Source: an uncultured Pseudomonadales bacterium
GTDB lineage: Bacteria; Patescibacteriota; Microgenomatia; UBA1400; PJMF01
Reading direction: 5' to 3'
Assembly (NCBI GenBank): GCA_964556485.1
Contig: CAZKVV010000001.1
Coordinates: 84,551 to 148,550, forward strand
DNA length: 64,000 bases
Position 1 is the stretch's first letter; each line of letters starts with the position of its first letter. Shown piece by piece: positions 48,722 through 55,927 of this stretch. The notes beneath the pieces were generated by a model that was given only the letters and a program-made list of their open reading frames with translations, made no database searches and was not told the DNA's origin. The position numbers and the translations under genes were made by a program.

Positions 48722-48804
48722 GCCGAGGTGGCGGAATGGTAGACGCGTGGGTCTCAAAAACCCATGGGGGCAACTTCATGAGGGTTCGACTCCCTCCCTC
48801 GGCA
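48722..48804 (+). tRNA. tRNA-Leu (anticodon CAA), long variable arm, no encoded 3' CCA
   Basis: Acceptor stem GCCGAGG/CCTCGGC, D-arm, anticodon stem TGGGT/ACCCA with loop CUCAAAA, long variable arm, T-arm GGTTCGACTCC. The sequence after discriminator A is CATAAG. Confidence 0.9.
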
Positions 48805-50228: not shown

Positions 50229-51059
50229 ATGTTTCCAGAATTATTTGCAATCGGCTCATTCTCTTTTCGCACATTCATTCTTTTTTTGGTAGCTAGTTTC
50301 TTGCTAAGTGCCTTTGTCTTTTGGCGAAAGGGTAGAGAAGAACACTATCCGGAGGATCAACTTTTTGATGTGTTCTTATTATCCTTTTGCGTTGGTTCTG
50401 TCGCGTCTCGCATGGGCTATATTCTATTTCACTTAGAACAGTTTGCGTTTAATCCGCTTACTTGGTTGGATCTGTTTCGCAATGCTGGTTTTAACGGTCT
50501 GATAGGCATTGTTTTCGGTGGATTCTATGTCTATCGCATTGCAGACAAGAAGAAGTGGGATGCATTCGAAATTCTCGACTTTTGGACGATTTCACTTACG
50601 CTTGGTTTAGGTCTCATTTACTTGGGTCAGTTTTTTGATGGTTCAGGTGTTGGGTATCCAACATCGCTTCCGGTTGGCATTCAGTTTGACGGTTTGTTTG
50701 AGCCTGTCCATCCAGTGCAGCTCTACCAATCAGTGTTTTTCATAGGCCTTTCAGCGTACCTGTCTTGGGCGGAATTTCGTTATCGAAACTTCAGATGGTA
50801 TAGAGCAGGTAAGAAGTCGGCTCAAACAGGCTTTTTGGTTGCAATGGCACTGCTTACTAGCGGAATTTTTTCTTTCTTCATTTCATTTGTAAAACCACCA
50901 CTTATTGAAATAGTTGGGAGTAATATCGATCAATTGCTGTCGCTCTTTGTCGCTGCTATAGGCGGTATGGTCTTGTACCATCGCTCTGGCAGACCACTAC
51001 CGTTTACCAGAGAAAAGAAAAAGCAACAAAAGCGAGTAGAACGGCTCCGTGTCCAATAG
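50229..51059 (+). CDS. lgt: prolipoprotein diacylglyceryl transferase
   Basis: Multi-TM protein. SRMGYILFH and LGQFFDGSGVGYPTSLPVGIQF resemble the Lgt signature regions (GARLGYVLF..., GRLGNF.NGEL.G.PT.LPWG). Conserved lgt-lspA adjacency. Confidence 0.75.
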   Translation: MFPELFAIGSFSFRTFILFLVASFLLSAFVFWRKGREEHYPEDQLFDVFLLSFCVGSVASRMGYILFHLEQFAFNPLTWLDLFRNAGFNGLIGIVFGGFYVYRIADKKKWDAFEILDFWTISLTLGLGLIYLGQFFDGSGVGYPTSLPVGIQFDGLFEPVHPVQLYQSVFFIGLSAYLSWAEFRYRNFRWYRAGKKSAQTGFLVAMALLTSGIFSFFISFVKPPLIEIVGSNIDQLLSLFVAAIGGMVLYHRSGRPLPFTREKKKQQKRVERLRVQ

Positions 51060-51471
51060 AACTGTACTCATCACTATGTTGCTGGTGTTAGGCTTTGATC
51101 AATTCAGCAAAGATAGCGCTCATTTGTTTGGTTTTGCAACGAGTCTTAATACCGGAGTGTCTTTCTCACTTTTTTCTTCCGTTTCTGCCGAAGTCTTAAC
51201 CCTGGTTTTACTGCTGTGTATTTTTGGATTATGGTACAAATTGCAGTACTTTTGGCAGAAAAATCAGCTTGCAGCAGGCTTTTTTTTCGGTGGAGGTATC
51301 TCAAATATTCTTGATAGAGCGCTGTACGGCGGAGTAAGAGATTGGCTGCCAGTTCCAGGTGCATCAATTTCAAATAACCTTGCCGATTGGGCCATTGGGA
51401 TAGCTATTTTGCTGCTGCTGATTTCGACAGTACAAACAACACAAAAACACAAACATGCACGAAGTATTTAA
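51049..51471 (+). CDS. lspA: lipoprotein signal peptidase II
   Basis: FGGGISNILDRALYGGVRDWL matches the LspA C-region motif (GGA.GN..DR...G.V.D). Overlaps lgt by 11 nt. Confidence 0.75.
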   Translation: MSNRTVLITMLLVLGFDQFSKDSAHLFGFATSLNTGVSFSLFSSVSAEVLTLVLLLCIFGLWYKLQYFWQKNQLAAGFFFGGGISNILDRALYGGVRDWLPVPGASISNNLADWAIGIAILLLLISTVQTTQKHKHARSI

Positions 51472-52288
51472 TTTTGATCCAGAGGTTCTTTTTGAAGATG
51501 CAGACGTGCTTATTTTGCAAAAGCCGCCTGGTGTGGTGGTGAATCGCGCAGATACCATTGCTGTACCCACCATTCAAGACTGGTTGGATGTTCGTTTTAA
51601 AGGACTGGATTGGCCTGCAGATTGGGAACAACTGGTTCCTGCTGATTTTTTGCCAGAATATGGAACTCCTCAAGAAATTTTTGCCAGCAGATCTGGAATT
51701 GCACATCGGCTAGATAAAGACACCAGTGGTGTATTTATGTGTGCTAAGCACCCAGGTTCGTTGCTAGCGTTGCTCAAACAGTTTCGCGAGAGAACCATCA
51801 CCAAAACATATCGCACTTTGGTGCATGGACACTTTTCCCAGCTAGAAGGTGAAGTTACAGCTCCCATTGGTCGAAGTAGTACAAACAGAAAGCGTTTTGC
51901 GGTAGTTCCAGATGGCAGAACTGCACATACGTTTTATAAAGTAGAAAAATCATTTGCCAAGCTTGATTTAGCGCGCGTTTCGACTTCGGTTTTCGAGCAA
52001 TTACAACAGCGGTCAGACCTCTACCAGGGCTTTACTCTGGTAACGTGTTGGCCTAAGACCGGCAGAACCCACCAGATTAGAGTCCATATGGCTCATCTGC
52101 AACATCCATTGGTAGGTGATGTTCACTACGTTGGTAAAAAACGCGCCAAGCTTGATCCACTGTGGTGTCCACGACAGTTTTTACATGCTGCCAGCATCCA
52201 ATTTGTGCATCCCAGAACTGGCGAGCAGCTTTCTATAGAAGCACCCCTTACTTCCGATTTACAAACAGTACTAAGCTACTTAGAGTAA
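51455..52288 (+). CDS. RluA-family 23S rRNA pseudouridine synthase (RluD-like)
   Basis: HRLDKDTSGVFMCAKH catalytic motif. Conserved position after lspA. Confidence 0.85.
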   Translation: MHEVFNFDPEVLFEDADVLILQKPPGVVVNRADTIAVPTIQDWLDVRFKGLDWPADWEQLVPADFLPEYGTPQEIFASRSGIAHRLDKDTSGVFMCAKHPGSLLALLKQFRERTITKTYRTLVHGHFSQLEGEVTAPIGRSSTNRKRFAVVPDGRTAHTFYKVEKSFAKLDLARVSTSVFEQLQQRSDLYQGFTLVTCWPKTGRTHQIRVHMAHLQHPLVGDVHYVGKKRAKLDPLWCPRQFLHAASIQFVHPRTGEQLSIEAPLTSDLQTVLSYLE

Positions 52289-52292
52289 TAGC

Positions 52293-52901
52293 ATGAACAT
52301 TACTTTTCCCCAAGAACAACTAACCTTTATTGCCCCAGGATGGCAAAAGCTGCAAGATTTGACCTTTAAAATGGCCAAAGAAGTGCGAGATAGCGAACTG
52401 CAGTTTGATAGAGTAGTAACTCTGGCAAAAGGTGGCTGGCCAATGAGTCGCACGCTGGCCGATTTTTTGGAAATTTCTGAAGTGCAAAGCATGGGACTGA
52501 AATTTTACAAAGGTATCGATTCTCGTATGGCTAAACCAGTGATTTATCAAGATTTGCCTGTTGACGTGAGTGGCGAGAGCATTCTCCTTTTTGATGACGT
52601 GGCAGATACTGGCGAATCTCTAGCTTTTGCCATTGATTACCTCCTTGAGCGCGGCGCAGCTCTGATTACCACAGCATGTATCTACTACAAAAAGCGCTCT
52701 AGAGTGAAACCAAGCTTTTTTGCCACCCAAGTAGATGGCTGGATTGTTTTTCCGTACGAACTTCTCGAGACCTTACGCATTTTAGCGACAGGATGGCTTG
52801 CAGAAGGTGTCACCCCCGAGGAAGTTGTGCAGCGATTCATTCAGCTTAATTTCCCAGAACCACAAATTAGATACTTTCTTGAGGAAGTGATACTTACCTA
52901 A
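52293..52901 (+). CDS. type I phosphoribosyltransferase-family protein
   Basis: PRPP-binding motif ILLFDDVADTGESLA. Confidence 0.7.
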   Translation: MNITFPQEQLTFIAPGWQKLQDLTFKMAKEVRDSELQFDRVVTLAKGGWPMSRTLADFLEISEVQSMGLKFYKGIDSRMAKPVIYQDLPVDVSGESILLFDDVADTGESLAFAIDYLLERGAALITTACIYYKKRSRVKPSFFATQVDGWIVFPYELLETLRILATGWLAEGVTPEEVVQRFIQLNFPEPQIRYFLEEVILT

Positions 52902-52963
52902 TGTGCTTTTTTGCACTTGCAAACCTTTATTAAGCGGCTACAATAACTAGCTATAACAAATTG

Positions 52964-53031
52964 GCGAGGGCACCGTGCTTTCGCTCCCAAGTAACGATTT
53001 TTTGCACTGGGTTGCAAAAAGGGAAACCAAG
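52964..53031 (+). ncRNA. unclassified structured RNA-like motif, copy 1 (strand uncertain)
   Basis: The two copies are written identically on this strand. Hairpin GCGAGGG-loop-CTTTCGC; exact 19-mer GCTTTCGCTCCCAAGTAAC (52977-52995); 8-bp hairpin TTTTTGCA/TGCAAAAA; GGAAACCAAG. The second copy at 53242-53321 has different but still complementary stem sequences. Confidence 0.35.
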
Positions 53032-53241
53032 CTGAGCTGAAGCTATAAGGTGTTCTTTTTTTATTCCCAAAATAGATTCTCAAAAAATCATTACAAGACT
53101 TCGCATTATGCTATTTTGCCTAAATCGCAAATCAGCATCTGCACAAGTTAACAAAAGTAATTAAGTTATAAGATACTTGGGGAAATTGGTAGTTGCAATG
53201 TTGTCTTATATATATTATTATAAGACTATATAAATGGAATT

Positions 53242-53321
53242 GCGAAAGGCACTAGGTCAGCTTTCGCTCCCAAGTAACACACATCCGCTTTTTACTCAGA
53301 AGAAAGCGGATTGAAACCAAG
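53242..53321 (+). ncRNA. unclassified structured RNA-like motif, copy 2 (strand uncertain)
   Basis: Hairpin GCGAAAG-loop-CTTTCGC; the same exact 19-mer (53260-53278); 9-bp hairpin ATCCGCTTT/AAAGCGGAT; GAAACCAAG. Lies about 65 nt upstream of the 53386 start. Confidence 0.35.
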
Positions 53322-53385
53322 TAGAGCAATAGTTGAGAAAGGTGCCTGTTTTTGTACCTCAGCCTCAACAGAAAGTACAAAAGCT

Positions 53386-54390
53386 ATGTCACAAACAGCA
53401 GAAATTGTTAAAAAAAATAGTTCGCACAATCTTTCGCTTTCTTCAGTTGATGTGCCCCATCTATTGGCACCGCTCCCCAGAAATGCAGAAAATATTTATC
53501 ATAGTGCTGCGATGTCTCAGCGTTGGGATCTCATTGCACGTCATATGCCTGGTGCAAAAGGTGAAGTATTACGCAACACCCTCGAAGGGGCGAATGCAGC
53601 AGAGGATTACCTCGCAATTTCCAGAACAATTGGCTTTTTGTATGAAGCCATTGGGCATGATATTACAGATGTAGGTTACCTTCGAGATACTTTGTACGAA
53701 AATAGATCACGCTTTTTCCCTCAATCACTCCAAAACCTCGAACATTTTGCACCAGAACAGGTTTCTAAGTCTCATGAAGGCAGAAATCCATTACTACACA
53801 CCTGTGACGACTTAGCTCAATATGCGGTTGATGTAGCGCAAACCCCTGAAAAATCCAGACAAAGCGACTCAATGATTTTTATCGAAGTTGCCGCAATACT
53901 GTTGCACGACTACGGAAAATTATTTGATCCTAAAGATCCTTCACATGGGAGCGGTTCAGTCCGTTGGAGTGAGAAGTGGGTTGCTGGGTTGGCTGAAACC
54001 TTTCCAGATAAGACTATTGACAAAGATATTCTGACGTATCAACTAAACTTTCTAATGAAATTTCATGATTTACCAGGTAATATCGACTTGGGCAACTTAG
54101 ATATTGAAGGGGCAGTGAGAGTCATGCTTGATGAAGGCTATATTCCAAGCAACCAGTTGCTTTTGTCTCTAGAGCGTGTGCAAGAAGCAGATATGTTGGG
54201 TACTCCTGGCATGCCAAGAGAGTTTAGACAAAAAAATAGGCAAATTTTGCGTCAACTTCGACAGACAATAGAAAATATAAAAATTGAATATGGTGTAGCC
54301 GATTCAATTGTTCCCACAGAGCAACTTATCTCGACTGATAAGGATTTAGTAACTGAGTTTTTTGCCATGATTAGTAGAGCAGAGGTGTAA
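53386..54390 (+). CDS. hypothetical protein with an HD-domain-like motif (ILLHDYGK)
   Basis: Start taken at MSQTAEIVKK (53386), downstream of the RNA motif; the ORF track started at 53311. No further family assignment. Confidence 0.5.
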   Translation: MSQTAEIVKKNSSHNLSLSSVDVPHLLAPLPRNAENIYHSAAMSQRWDLIARHMPGAKGEVLRNTLEGANAAEDYLAISRTIGFLYEAIGHDITDVGYLRDTLYENRSRFFPQSLQNLEHFAPEQVSKSHEGRNPLLHTCDDLAQYAVDVAQTPEKSRQSDSMIFIEVAAILLHDYGKLFDPKDPSHGSGSVRWSEKWVAGLAETFPDKTIDKDILTYQLNFLMKFHDLPGNIDLGNLDIEGAVRVMLDEGYIPSNQLLLSLERVQEADMLGTPGMPREFRQKNRQILRQLRQTIENIKIEYGVADSIVPTEQLISTDKDLVTEFFAMISRAEV

Positions 54391-54509
54391 CGTCACTCGT
54401 TTTATTGTTTGCATGATATACTTTCGCTATGGAAATTCAGTCTGAATCAACATTTTTTTACAAAGGCCAACATGATTAAGTCGGCTCTTTTGTTTATGGT
54501 TTCTTTTTC

Positions 54510-54536
54510 AACACTTTAACGTAGTGTTATTTTTTT
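54510..54536 (+). terminator. intrinsic terminator (AACACT-TTAACGT-AGTGTT + T7)
   Basis: 6-bp stem followed by ATTTTTTT. Confidence 0.5.
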
Positions 54537-54613
54537 GCATTTCCCCTGTGGTAGAGTAGGGGTAGTTGTGTTTTTGCGGTACGAAGTAAAGTAACAAATC
54601 CAAGAAAGAAATC

Positions 54614-55927
54614 ATGAAAGACAGTATTTTTTCACTCATCAAAAAAGAAGAGAAACGCCAAAAAGAAATGATTGGCCTCATTCCATCCGAAAACGCGGTG
54701 TCGCCAGAGGTGTCTGCGGTGTTGTCGAGCTGCTTGTCAAACAAGTATGCAGAAGGGTATCCAGGCAGAAGATACTACGAAGGCAACCAAATTGTCGATC
54801 AAGTCGAAATTGAGGCTCAGGAGCGGGTTAAAAAGCTATTTGGCGTGCCATACGTTAATGTTCAGCCATATTCTGGTTCGCCAGCAAACTTAGCTATTTA
54901 TTTTGCCCTGATGAAGCCGGGAGAAACCTTGATGGGACTGAAGTTGGCAAATGGGGGACACCTTACACATGGCCATCCGGATGTAACGGCTTCGGGAACT
55001 TTTTACAAAACAGTCCAGTATGGGGTGAAAGCAGATGCTCGTATTGATTTTGATGAAGTCAGAGCGTTGGCAAAAAAACACAAACCTAAGGTGATCGTGG
55101 CGGGTAATACGGCATATCCTTTCGAGCTAGATTTTAAAACATTTAGGAAAATTGCGGATGAAGTGGGCGCATTTTTGATTGCTGATATTTCGCATGTGAC
55201 AGGTCTGATTGTTGCTGGCGAACATGTGTCACCGGTGCCATATGCAGATGTGGTGATGACTACGACACATAAAACCTTCCGAGGTCCACGTGGTGCCATG
55301 ATCATGGTTACTCCAAGAGGTATGGAAAAAGACCCAAAAATGGGTAAAAAGATTGATGCTGCCATTATTCCAGGACTTCAAGGTGGTCCACACAATGCAA
55401 CCACTGCTGGTATTGCAATTGCTGCTGCAGAGGCGATGCGGCCTGAATTTACTGCGTATGCCAAGCAGATAAAGCTCAATGCGATGGCATTGGCAAATAG
55501 ATTAATGAAAAATGGGTTGCAGTTGGTAGGCGGTGGCACAGAGACTCACTTGATGGTTATTGATTTAACTAACAAGGGGATTGGACTGGGAACACAGGTA
55601 TCTTTTGCCATGGATGTTGCTGGTATCTACGCTAATCGAAACACTGTTCCGGGTGAGCAAGGTTCGCCATTTTTTCCAAGTGGCATTCGCATTGGTACGC
55701 CGCTCGTTACCACTCGCGGCATGAAACAAGCCGAAATGGTCAAAATTGCAGACTGGATTACTCGAGTAGTTGATTGCACGGTAGCTACACAACTGCCACA
55801 AGAAGTTAAAGCTCGAAGCGAATTTTTGACAACCTTCAGAAAAAATGCCCTCAAAGACCCAACCCTGTTGGCAATTCGCGCAGAGGTGACTACCATGGCC
55901 AAGACTTTTCCGTTGTTTAGTTGGTAA
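54614..55927 (+). CDS. glyA: serine hydroxymethyltransferase
   Basis: Near-canonical SHMT N-terminus (IGLIPSENAVSPEV...YAEGYPGRRYYEG) and PLP lysine region TTTHKTFRGPRG. Confidence 0.95.
   Translation: MKDSIFSLIKKEEKRQKEMIGLIPSENAVSPEVSAVLSSCLSNKYAEGYPGRRYYEGNQIVDQVEIEAQERVKKLFGVPYVNVQPYSGSPANLAIYFALMKPGETLMGLKLANGGHLTHGHPDVTASGTFYKTVQYGVKADARIDFDEVRALAKKHKPKVIVAGNTAYPFELDFKTFRKIADEVGAFLIADISHVTGLIVAGEHVSPVPYADVVMTTTHKTFRGPRGAMIMVTPRGMEKDPKMGKKIDAAIIPGLQGGPHNATTAGIAIAAAEAMRPEFTAYAKQIKLNAMALANRLMKNGLQLVGGGTETHLMVIDLTNKGIGLGTQVSFAMDVAGIYANRNTVPGEQGSPFFPSGIRIGTPLVTTRGMKQAEMVKIADWITRVVDCTVATQLPQEVKARSEFLTTFRKNALKDPTLLAIRAEVTTMAKTFPLFSW

Follow-up and report, generated by a model that had tools for sequence, protein, structure and literature searches.

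A conserved leader RNA with a terminator hairpin ahead of nucleotide-metabolism genes of Patescibacteria: a candidate riboswitch

In the 64-kb stretch of contig CAZKVV010000001.1 analysed here (the window), a phosphoribosyltransferase (PRTase) gene is followed on the same strand by the gene of a 334-amino-acid protein with HD-type motifs, and the spacer between them contains two copies of an RNA-like motif. A preliminary description of this DNA had placed the second copy in the 5' leader of the HD-type gene, which was confirmed. It had based the motif on a shared 19-mer, GCTTTCGCTCCCAAGTAAC, flanked by two local hairpins, P1 and P2. The 19-mer occurs exactly twice on the + strand (52977-52995 and 53260-53278), and no further site with up to three mismatches was found in the 64 kb; shuffled sequences contained 0.03 matches on average, and two or more in none of 100 shuffles. 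P1 was likewise found as described, with GCGAGGG/CTTTCGC in copy 1 (two G-U pairs) and GCGAAAG/CTTTCGC in copy 2. So were the P2 stems, TTTTTGCA/TGCAAAAA and ATCCGCTTT/AAAGCGGAT, which are unlike in sequence yet self-complementary within each copy, and the common GAAACCAAG that is present 3' of P2 in copies 1 and 2 alike. The limits proposed for the pair (52964-53321) are too narrow: the 3' third of either copy, comprising GAGC, GAAAG, GGUGYY and a U-run, had been missed, and the true extent of a copy reaches about 35 nt further 3'.

With the 3' part included, every instance of the motif has the same layout: a promoter, one long hairpin and a U-tract, forming a leader RNA of about 105 nt. The outer helix, GGGCACC/GGUGCUC (7-9 bp, consensus GRRRNCACC / GGUGNYYUU), runs into the U-tract. 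Above it follow a small internal loop and a second helix, GCUUUCGCUC/GAGC-N-GAAAGC, and above this helix a large asymmetric internal loop and the variable apical stem P2. The long hairpin was the minimum-free-energy structure of all 34 full-length sequences when each was folded singly. In the relatives' alignments the long-range complementarity is seen between GGCAC, on the 5' side of the P1 loop, and AGGUGCC in copy 2, and between GGGCACC and GGUGUUC, followed by seven U, in copy 1; the related locus L002 has GAACACC/GGUGUUC. The preliminary description had recognized just the two local hairpins. In the dominant conserved fold, which is a single long hairpin, the distal GGUGYY ahead of the U-run is the partner of the 5' half of P1, and GAGC-N-GAAAGC that of its 3' half. 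A local short terminator, GAGC/GCUC, was considered and rejected; it has 4 bp only and is lost in sequences ending GGUGUUUU.

Covariation was computed on a model-guided alignment of 39 sequences with 22 modelled pairs. Paired combinations filled 92.5% of the cells, compensatory changes were found in 12 of the 22 pairs, including all six modelled pairs of P2, and none of 500 shuffles matched the values of the long hairpin on any of five measures; with slid partners only 44-57% of the cells were paired. RNAalifold recovered the outer helix from a plain MAFFT alignment, and the outer helix together with P2 from the model-guided one. For every helix the cognate strands formed more stable duplexes than non-cognate strands (0/5000 permutations), a comparison that also supported the poorly aligned extension of the second helix. 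The frequency of G-U pairs and the low scores of the reverse strand, about 15 bits, identify the + strand as the transcribed one. The compensatory changes in relatives show a structured + strand RNA selected for pairing and not a plain duplication, as had been suggested from the two copies alone.

Both copies are present in the spacer of each syntenic relative, where the stems differ but stay complementary; P2, for example, is rebuilt from other sequence in L002 (UUCAGGUAA/UUACCUGA). Absence from related genomes had been named in advance as an outcome that would speak against a functional RNA; the motif is found there, with compensatory changes. A pattern scan of one genome per species returned at least 119 loci, of which about 30 were true instances and about three quarters chance matches, and a stricter pattern search returned 29 metagenome contigs. 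The covariance model recognized at least 70 instances (39 in species-representative genomes and 31 metagenome-contig matches), representing at least 53 distinct sequences and at least 38 clusters at 90% identity; true instances scored 50-101 bits, chance loci at most 18 bits. With the filters off, nothing else in the 64-kb window scored above 14.4 bits, and no instance was found in viral contigs. Among the matches listed, all named source genomes are Patescibacteria (Candidatus Pacebacteria, Paceibacterota, 'Patescibacteria group'), and most are Candidatus Pacebacteria. The pair of copies is kept as two distinct subtypes in at least seven loci: the window, L001, L002, L004, L038/L139, L126 and L149. 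A number of metagenome-assembled genomes (MAGs) labelled 'uncultured Pseudomonadales bacterium ... SRPxxxx_co' have neighbourhoods of the Pacebacteria type (L009, L012, L019, L022, L035, L053, L055, L056, L063, L074, L080, L090, L122 and L123), and L009 is near-identical to the Patescibacteria MAG L037; the Pseudomonadales labels of these MAGs are probably wrong.

The large internal loop is almost unchanged throughout, with the consensus CCAAGUAAC / GGAMACCAAG, or more fully CCAAGUAACRA on the 5' side and GGAMACCAAGYN on the 3' side. The 5' side, C38 C39 A A G U A A C (to C46), is the same in 39/39 sequences apart from one U-to-A change, and on the 3' side G110 A111 (A/C)112 A113 C C A A G118 is invariant or nearly so. 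Fifteen plus six nucleotides are invariant across 28 clusters at 80% identity, and the word CCAAG occurs twice, on opposing strands of the loop. A41-G-U-A44 opposite G110-A-A/C112 looks like a loop-E (sarcin-ricin) module of the AGUA/GAA type, in which the last position can likewise be A or C.

A sigma-70-type promoter (TTGACA/TGnTATAAT-type) lies 20-30 nt 5' of nearly all instances, and the motif therefore begins near the 5' end of the transcript. At least five U are found within 8 nt after the outer helix in 37 of the 39 instances, so that a stable G+C-containing helix is followed by a U-tract, as in a rho-independent terminator; a simple terminator scanner, which allows loops of no more than 8 nt, missed the long hairpin. 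Start codons are mostly found no further than about 45 nt from the conserved ACCAAG, which places them 10-40 nt past the U-run. In the window, L001, L002, L004 and L038 the promoter of copy 2 is unchanged, while the rest of the spacer between the copies diverges.

P1 and the long hairpin are mutually exclusive because P1 uses the 5' strands of both lower helices. In the 39 sequences 89.6% of the P1 cells are paired, compared with 46-56% in slid controls, and the covarying position of P1 links columns 12, 29 and 153 three ways, with A-U-U in 8 and G-C-C/U in 22 sequences. When only the nascent RNA was folded, before the 3' strands exist, P1 was obtained in 28 of 39 prefix folds. P1 is therefore best read as a competing fold and a candidate antiterminator, which by computation gives the leader the exclusive terminator and antiterminator folds of a riboswitch; an antiterminator strand on the 5' side of this core would be an unusual feature of the conserved RNA. 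An alternative hairpin, GGAMACC/GGUG-YUU, was rejected, since its pairing comes mainly from the U-run and its central pair is mismatched in 27 of 39 sequences.

The genes downstream of the motif share one theme, the breakdown and interconversion of (purine) nucleotides. In some loci the first of them belongs to one of three related lineage-specific families (A, B and C) with H..HD..GK..H..HD..D motifs and sub-threshold Pfam HD matches; A and B match each other with an hhalign E value of 1e-5. The 334-amino-acid protein of the window is, judging from its motifs, a probable HD-superfamily hydrolase. It has no sequence match in Pfam, NCBIfam or PDB and no curated family model fits it, but its profile matches a second motif-associated family that has sub-threshold Pfam HD matches, and its AlphaFold model (predicted local distance difference test score, pLDDT, 78) gives weak Foldseek matches to the HD-fold proteins YhaM and PDE4 (E >0.3). 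Its family is tiny, with 9 homologues (90% clustering) in 5.8 billion sequences and 16 representative clusters among 1.8 billion proteins in an exhaustive HMMER search. In other loci the first gene encodes a family of about 265 amino acids without sequence annotation, the AlphaFold model of which matches YhdE, Maf and YceF in Foldseek (E 4e-6 to 1e-4; 4e-6 to 1e-3 when Ham1/ITPase is included). Elsewhere it encodes an inosine monophosphate (IMP) dehydrogenase (4e-123), an adenosine deaminase (1e-55) or a nucleoside-hydrolase-like protein with the N-terminus DTDxGxDDxxAL, which is presumably the start typical of inosine-uridine nucleoside hydrolases. The suggestion that the motif might always precede HD or PRTase genes does not hold, as the Maf/ITPase-fold, IMP dehydrogenase, adenosine deaminase and nucleoside hydrolase loci demonstrate.

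On the other side of the motif, the PRTase of the window is of the purine type. Its best NCBIfam matches are hypoxanthine and xanthine PRTase (1e-10), all below the cut-off, and PyrR models match at 1e-4. Of the 17 loci with a PRTase gene close to the motif, 15 have it immediately on the upstream side and 2 a short way downstream. The relatives' gene order is lgt, lspA, rluD, PRTase, a spacer of about 500 nt, the 334-amino-acid gene and glyA; glyA/folD are found downstream of motif loci, and in many loci the motif lies 43-140 nt past the upstream gene. When the window region 50229-55927 was compared with 27 related loci, the order lgt-lspA-rluD-(PRTase)-[motif]-X-glyA was seen to be kept. X differs between the genomes and can be an HD-type gene of family A, B or C, an IMP dehydrogenase gene or a member of the Maf-like family. 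Since X varies in an otherwise conserved gene order, the leader stays in place and it is the regulated gene that is exchanged. The features of the window are collected in Table 1.

Table 1. Features of the two leader copies and adjoining genes (window coordinates)
Feature	Position	Strand	Basis or remark
Purine-type phosphoribosyltransferase, upstream neighbour	52293-52901	+	Pfam Pribosyltran 1.3e-14
Copy 1 promoter-like site, TTGCAA-16-TACAAT	52917-52944	+	consensus scan; kept in L001, L004
Copy 1 leader RNA, full covariance-model match	52961-53063	+	94.2 bits; long hairpin as minimum-free-energy fold
Copy 1 alternative 5' hairpin (P1) GCGAGGGCA/UGCUUUCGC, candidate antiterminator	52964-52984	+	forms in fold of first 96 nt
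Copy 1 outer helix, 5' strand GAGGGCACC	52966-52974	+	partner strand 53049-53057; covariation in relatives
Copy 1 second helix, 5' strand GCUUUCGCUC	52977-52986	+	partner strand GAGC-U-GAAGC, 53034-53043
Copy 1 invariant internal loop, 5' side CCAAGUAACGA	52987-52997	+	C38-C46 near-invariant in alignment
Copy 1 apical stem-loop P2 UUUUUGCA/UGCAAAAA	52999-53020 (arms 52999-53006/53013-53020)	+	compensatory changes
Copy 1 invariant internal loop, 3' side GGGAAACCAAGCU	53021-53033	+	G110, A111, A113-G118 (near-)invariant
Copy 1 second helix, 3' strand GAGCUGAAGC	53034-53043	+	folds, covariation, cognate-strand test
Copy 1 outer helix, 3' strand GGUGUUC + seven U, intrinsic-terminator signature	53049-53062	+	
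Copy 2 promoter-like site, TTGCAA-17-TATTAT	53193-53221	+	consensus scan; invariant in window, L001, L002, L004, L038
Copy 2 leader RNA, full covariance-model match	53239-53355	+	74.7 bits
Copy 2 alternative 5' hairpin GCGAAAG ... CUUUCGC	53242-53267	+	
Copy 2 outer helix, 5' strand core GGCAC	53248-53252	+	pairs with GUGCC at 53342-53346
Copy 2 second helix, 5' strand, and invariant loop, 5' side, GCUUUCGCUC CCAAGUAAC...	53260-53282	+	
Copy 2 apical stem-loop P2 AUCCGCUUU/AAAGCGGAU	53283-53311 (arms 53283-53291/53303-53311)	+	
Copy 2 invariant loop, 3' side, and GAGC GAAACCAAGUAGAGC	53313-53327	+	
Copy 2 GAAAG, outer-helix 3' strand GGUGCC, interrupted U-run UGUUUUUGU	53337-53355	+	
Extra hairpin after copy 2 UUUUGUAC/GUACAAAA, joining U-run to region before start codon	53350-53382	+	
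Regulated gene, 334-amino-acid lineage-specific protein, H..HD..H..HD..D motifs	53386-54390	+	

Several further elements were noted in and around the spacer. Pairing is possible between GUACAAAA, directly 5' of the ATG at 53386, and the copy 2 U-run together with GUAC, and the counterpart of this extra hairpin in L002 has the compensatory pair UUUUUUUAC/GUAAAAAA; the hairpin may represent a second, translational layer of control particular to leaders of the copy 2 type. The inverted repeat GTCTTATA-N8-TATAAGAC, reported earlier between the copies, is present one base from where it had been placed, at 53203-53226. It is not a conserved element and was rejected as a functional one, its left arm being unconserved in relatives and its right arm lying in the promoter region of copy 2. 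Three TTAyAAGAC-like words, ATTACAAGACTT, GTTATAAGATAC and TATTATAAGACT (53092-53103, 53165-53176 and 53216-53227), are kept in L001, L002, L004 and L038 while their surroundings diverge, and may be operator or promoter-associated sites. In L001 a 45-nt insertion (L001:3536-3580) with a perfect 11-bp inverted repeat, TTCGTTTGCAA ... TTGCAAACGAA, separates the copy 2 promoter from the motif. A 26-codon open reading frame (ORF) running through copy 2 (MELRKALGQLSLPSNTHPLFTQKKAD, 53234-53314, ATG at 53234) was rejected as a leader peptide, since a stop in its third codon in L004 shows the frame to be unconserved. Neither the transfer RNA (tRNA) gene at 48722-48804 of the window nor the transfer-messenger RNA genes found about 0.1-0.5 kb from the motif in two Pacebacteria loci (L011:5504-5916 and L116:3850-4245) have an evident functional link to the motif.

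The motif was compared with known regulatory RNAs. A scan of the 64-kb window against Rfam 15 at the gathering threshold returned only one tRNA, a scan of 52850-53450 with E values up to 10 returned only chance CRISPR and microRNA fragments of at most 17 bits, and in six other loci there was no match at the motif positions. These scans are in line with the earlier impression that no known riboswitch or small RNA class fits, and a full-text literature search found no description of this motif. The leader behaves like known nucleotide-related riboswitches, yet belongs to none of them, and is thus an orphan riboswitch candidate.

The systems it resembles differ from it in recognizable ways. The purine-family riboswitches (RF00167, 2'-deoxyguanosine, xanthine/NMT1, 8-oxoguanine, phosphoribosyl pyrophosphate and ZTP) also use a terminator platform ahead of genes for purine salvage and interconversion, and the xanthine (NMT1) aptamer, too, has the shape of a rod that contains a conserved internal loop. 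However, none of their covariance models matches, the loop sequences CCAAGUAAC / GGAMACCAAG bear no relation to those of these classes, and the antiterminator strand precedes the aptamer here, whereas in them it is found 3' of it. The pyr leaders controlled by PyrR share the exclusive terminator and antiterminator folds, the position ahead of nucleotide-metabolism genes and an adjoining gene of the PRTase fold. In contrast to them, the present motif has neither the PyrR binding-loop consensus nor a match to RF00515, and so lacks the marks of a PyrR attenuator; it has two states instead of three hairpins, and the adjoining PRTase resembles a purine salvage enzyme. As in tandem arrangements of thiamine pyrophosphate (TPP) or glycine riboswitches, two full units of aptamer and terminator precede one gene, but here each unit has its own conserved promoter and the units are separately conserved subtypes. 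Subtype 2c of the ykkC RNAs is a riboswitch for (deoxy)nucleoside diphosphates ((d)NDPs) before NUDIX and HAD hydrolase genes and is thought to balance nucleotide pools (Sherlock et al. 2019, as reviewed in PMC7266159). It is like the present leader in preceding nucleotide-hydrolase genes (here HD-type and Maf/ITPase-fold) and unlike it in being predicted to act as an ON switch, where the anatomy of the present RNA suggests an OFF switch. Moreover, no member of the ykkC clan was matched in Rfam with E up to 10, and ykkC folds into two coaxial stacks, whereas the motif is a single rod with an internal loop.

Taking into account the conserved leader, the terminator hairpin, the invariant loop and the nucleotide-metabolism genes, a riboswitch-type switch of a kind not described before offers the most likely explanation. 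We are fairly confident that the motif is a cis-regulatory structured leader of some sort, and consider that it is probably a conditional intrinsic terminator of the riboswitch type, located in a promoter-proximal 5' leader. In the mechanism that we envisage, P1 would form first during transcription and would block the terminator. A small molecule of the purine or nucleotide kind would then bind to the invariant loop, which needs the second helix, and would lock the long hairpin; as the second helix formed, P1 would release the 5' strand of the outer helix, so that the terminator could form and transcription would end before the downstream gene, which would be switched off. An end product such as a compound of the guanine or hypoxanthine family would fit best as the ligand, because the regulated enzymes all lie upstream of guanosine monophosphate (GMP). 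The set of genes also recalls the PurR regulon of Escherichia coli, which includes glyA and guaB. In the window two complete units, each with its own promoter, would act in series before the HD-type gene; this tandem arrangement might make the response sharper; alternatively, copy 1 might be a small RNA in its own right.

A number of observations weigh against this interpretation. Double changes in P1 are confined to one pair, and its conservation could largely reflect the other partners of its strands. Compared with folds that retain P1, the long hairpin gains an average of 7 kcal/mol in stability, which leaves room for constitutive termination or for purely kinetic control. Even in the P1 state, GGUG of the 3' strand has a weak partner in the invariant GGAMACC (84% paired), so the 'ON' state is not clean. 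The two CCAAG words could equally form the site of a dimeric protein. The proposed ligand has been guessed from gene context. The switch could also work in the reverse direction, since the regulated enzymes are mostly hydrolases, which their substrate usually turns ON in other riboswitch systems; a substrate-induced ON switch, as predicted for the NDP riboswitch, is accordingly a possible alternative. Finally, the known range is narrow, being limited among the matches listed to one candidate phylum.

If the loop were bound by a regulatory protein, such as a PyrR-like PRTase-fold protein encoded just upstream, the leader would be a protein-dependent attenuator, an explanation that deserves attention although we think it unlikely. 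Loop-E-like modules are often protein sites, and the AGUA/GAA core thus speaks for it along with the CCAAG words; so do the PRTase gene adjoining the motif in 15 loci upstream and in 2 downstream, its weak match to PyrR models (E 1e-4) and the precedent of PyrR itself, a PRTase-fold protein that controls a terminator/antiterminator leader. However, the PRTase is closer to hypoxanthine and xanthine PRTase than to PyrR (1e-10 versus 1e-4), the Pacebacteria loci that have the motif ahead of the Maf-like gene do not contain it, and no PyrR binding site of Rfam was matched at the motif in the window region or in the six other loci. Moreover, invariant loop nucleotides ahead of several enzymes of one pathway are the usual picture of a metabolite aptamer. 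It seems rather improbable that copy 1, perhaps together with other instances, represents an independent small RNA some 100 nt long that acts in trans, for example as a decoy for the binder of the loop. Copy 1 does have a promoter-like site, a strong terminator (GGUGUUC + seven U) and no ORF before the next promoter, and the two copies are conserved as distinct subtypes, but beyond the tandem loci most instances have a start codon within a few tens of nucleotides, read-through from copy 1 would directly enter copy 2 and the same gene, and complete riboswitches in series are a known arrangement.

The thermodynamic preference for the long hairpin and its position 43-140 nt past the upstream gene in many loci would also suit an unregulated long terminator or insulator of the lgt-lspA-rluD-PRTase operon, the loop being kept for RNA stability or processing. 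We regard this as very unlikely, because each instance has a dedicated promoter, a constitutive terminator 10-40 nt before an ORF would silence that ORF, and a plain terminator needs neither an invariant loop nor a conserved competing hairpin; in the Pacebacteria loci, furthermore, the motif persists in the same orientation relative to the downstream gene although the neighbourhood is different. The two copies 280 bp apart and the AT-rich spacer with its inverted and direct repeats could recall a DNA-level repeat, whether similar to a phage attachment (att) site, of the repetitive extragenic palindromic (REP) or miniature inverted-repeat transposable element (MITE) type, or an operator pair. 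Such a repeat is hardly credible when pairing is maintained by G-U pairs, whose counterparts on the opposite strand are C-A, when the stems change sequence and retain complementarity, and when the reverse strand scores about 15 bits compared with 75-100 bits. The constant orientation between promoter and gene, the absence from viral contigs and the presence of only two copies in 64 kb also argue against it.

The riboswitch-type reading can be carried one step further. The motif may represent a new class of riboswitch, the first with a known range confined so far to Patescibacteria, that responds to a metabolite of the purine or nucleotide kind (such as a nucleotide of the guanine or hypoxanthine family or a non-canonical nucleoside triphosphate), controls nucleotide-scavenging enzymes and combines an aptamer inside the terminator hairpin with a 5' antiterminator strand; we hold the chances of this fuller proposal to be about even.

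Patescibacteria are ultrasmall, mostly uncultured, host-dependent bacteria without de novo nucleotide synthesis, and to our knowledge almost nothing has been established about their gene regulation. In the literature searched, one review mentions riboswitches in these bacteria, just as possible engineered tools. A native and strongly conserved leader before nucleotide-processing genes would be a first handle on how they sense nucleotides, and would give a functional clue for the three HD-type families and for the Maf/ITPase-fold family, which have no curated model above cut-off. It would also supply a ligand-responsive part for genetics in this group, and for RNA biology an orphan candidate with a compact rod architecture and an uncommon arrangement of switching strands. 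If the proposal is true, the scavenging enzymes under control of the leader (HD-type, Maf/ITPase-fold, IMP dehydrogenase and adenosine deaminase) would be those that underpin the nucleotide supply of these biosynthesis-poor bacteria.

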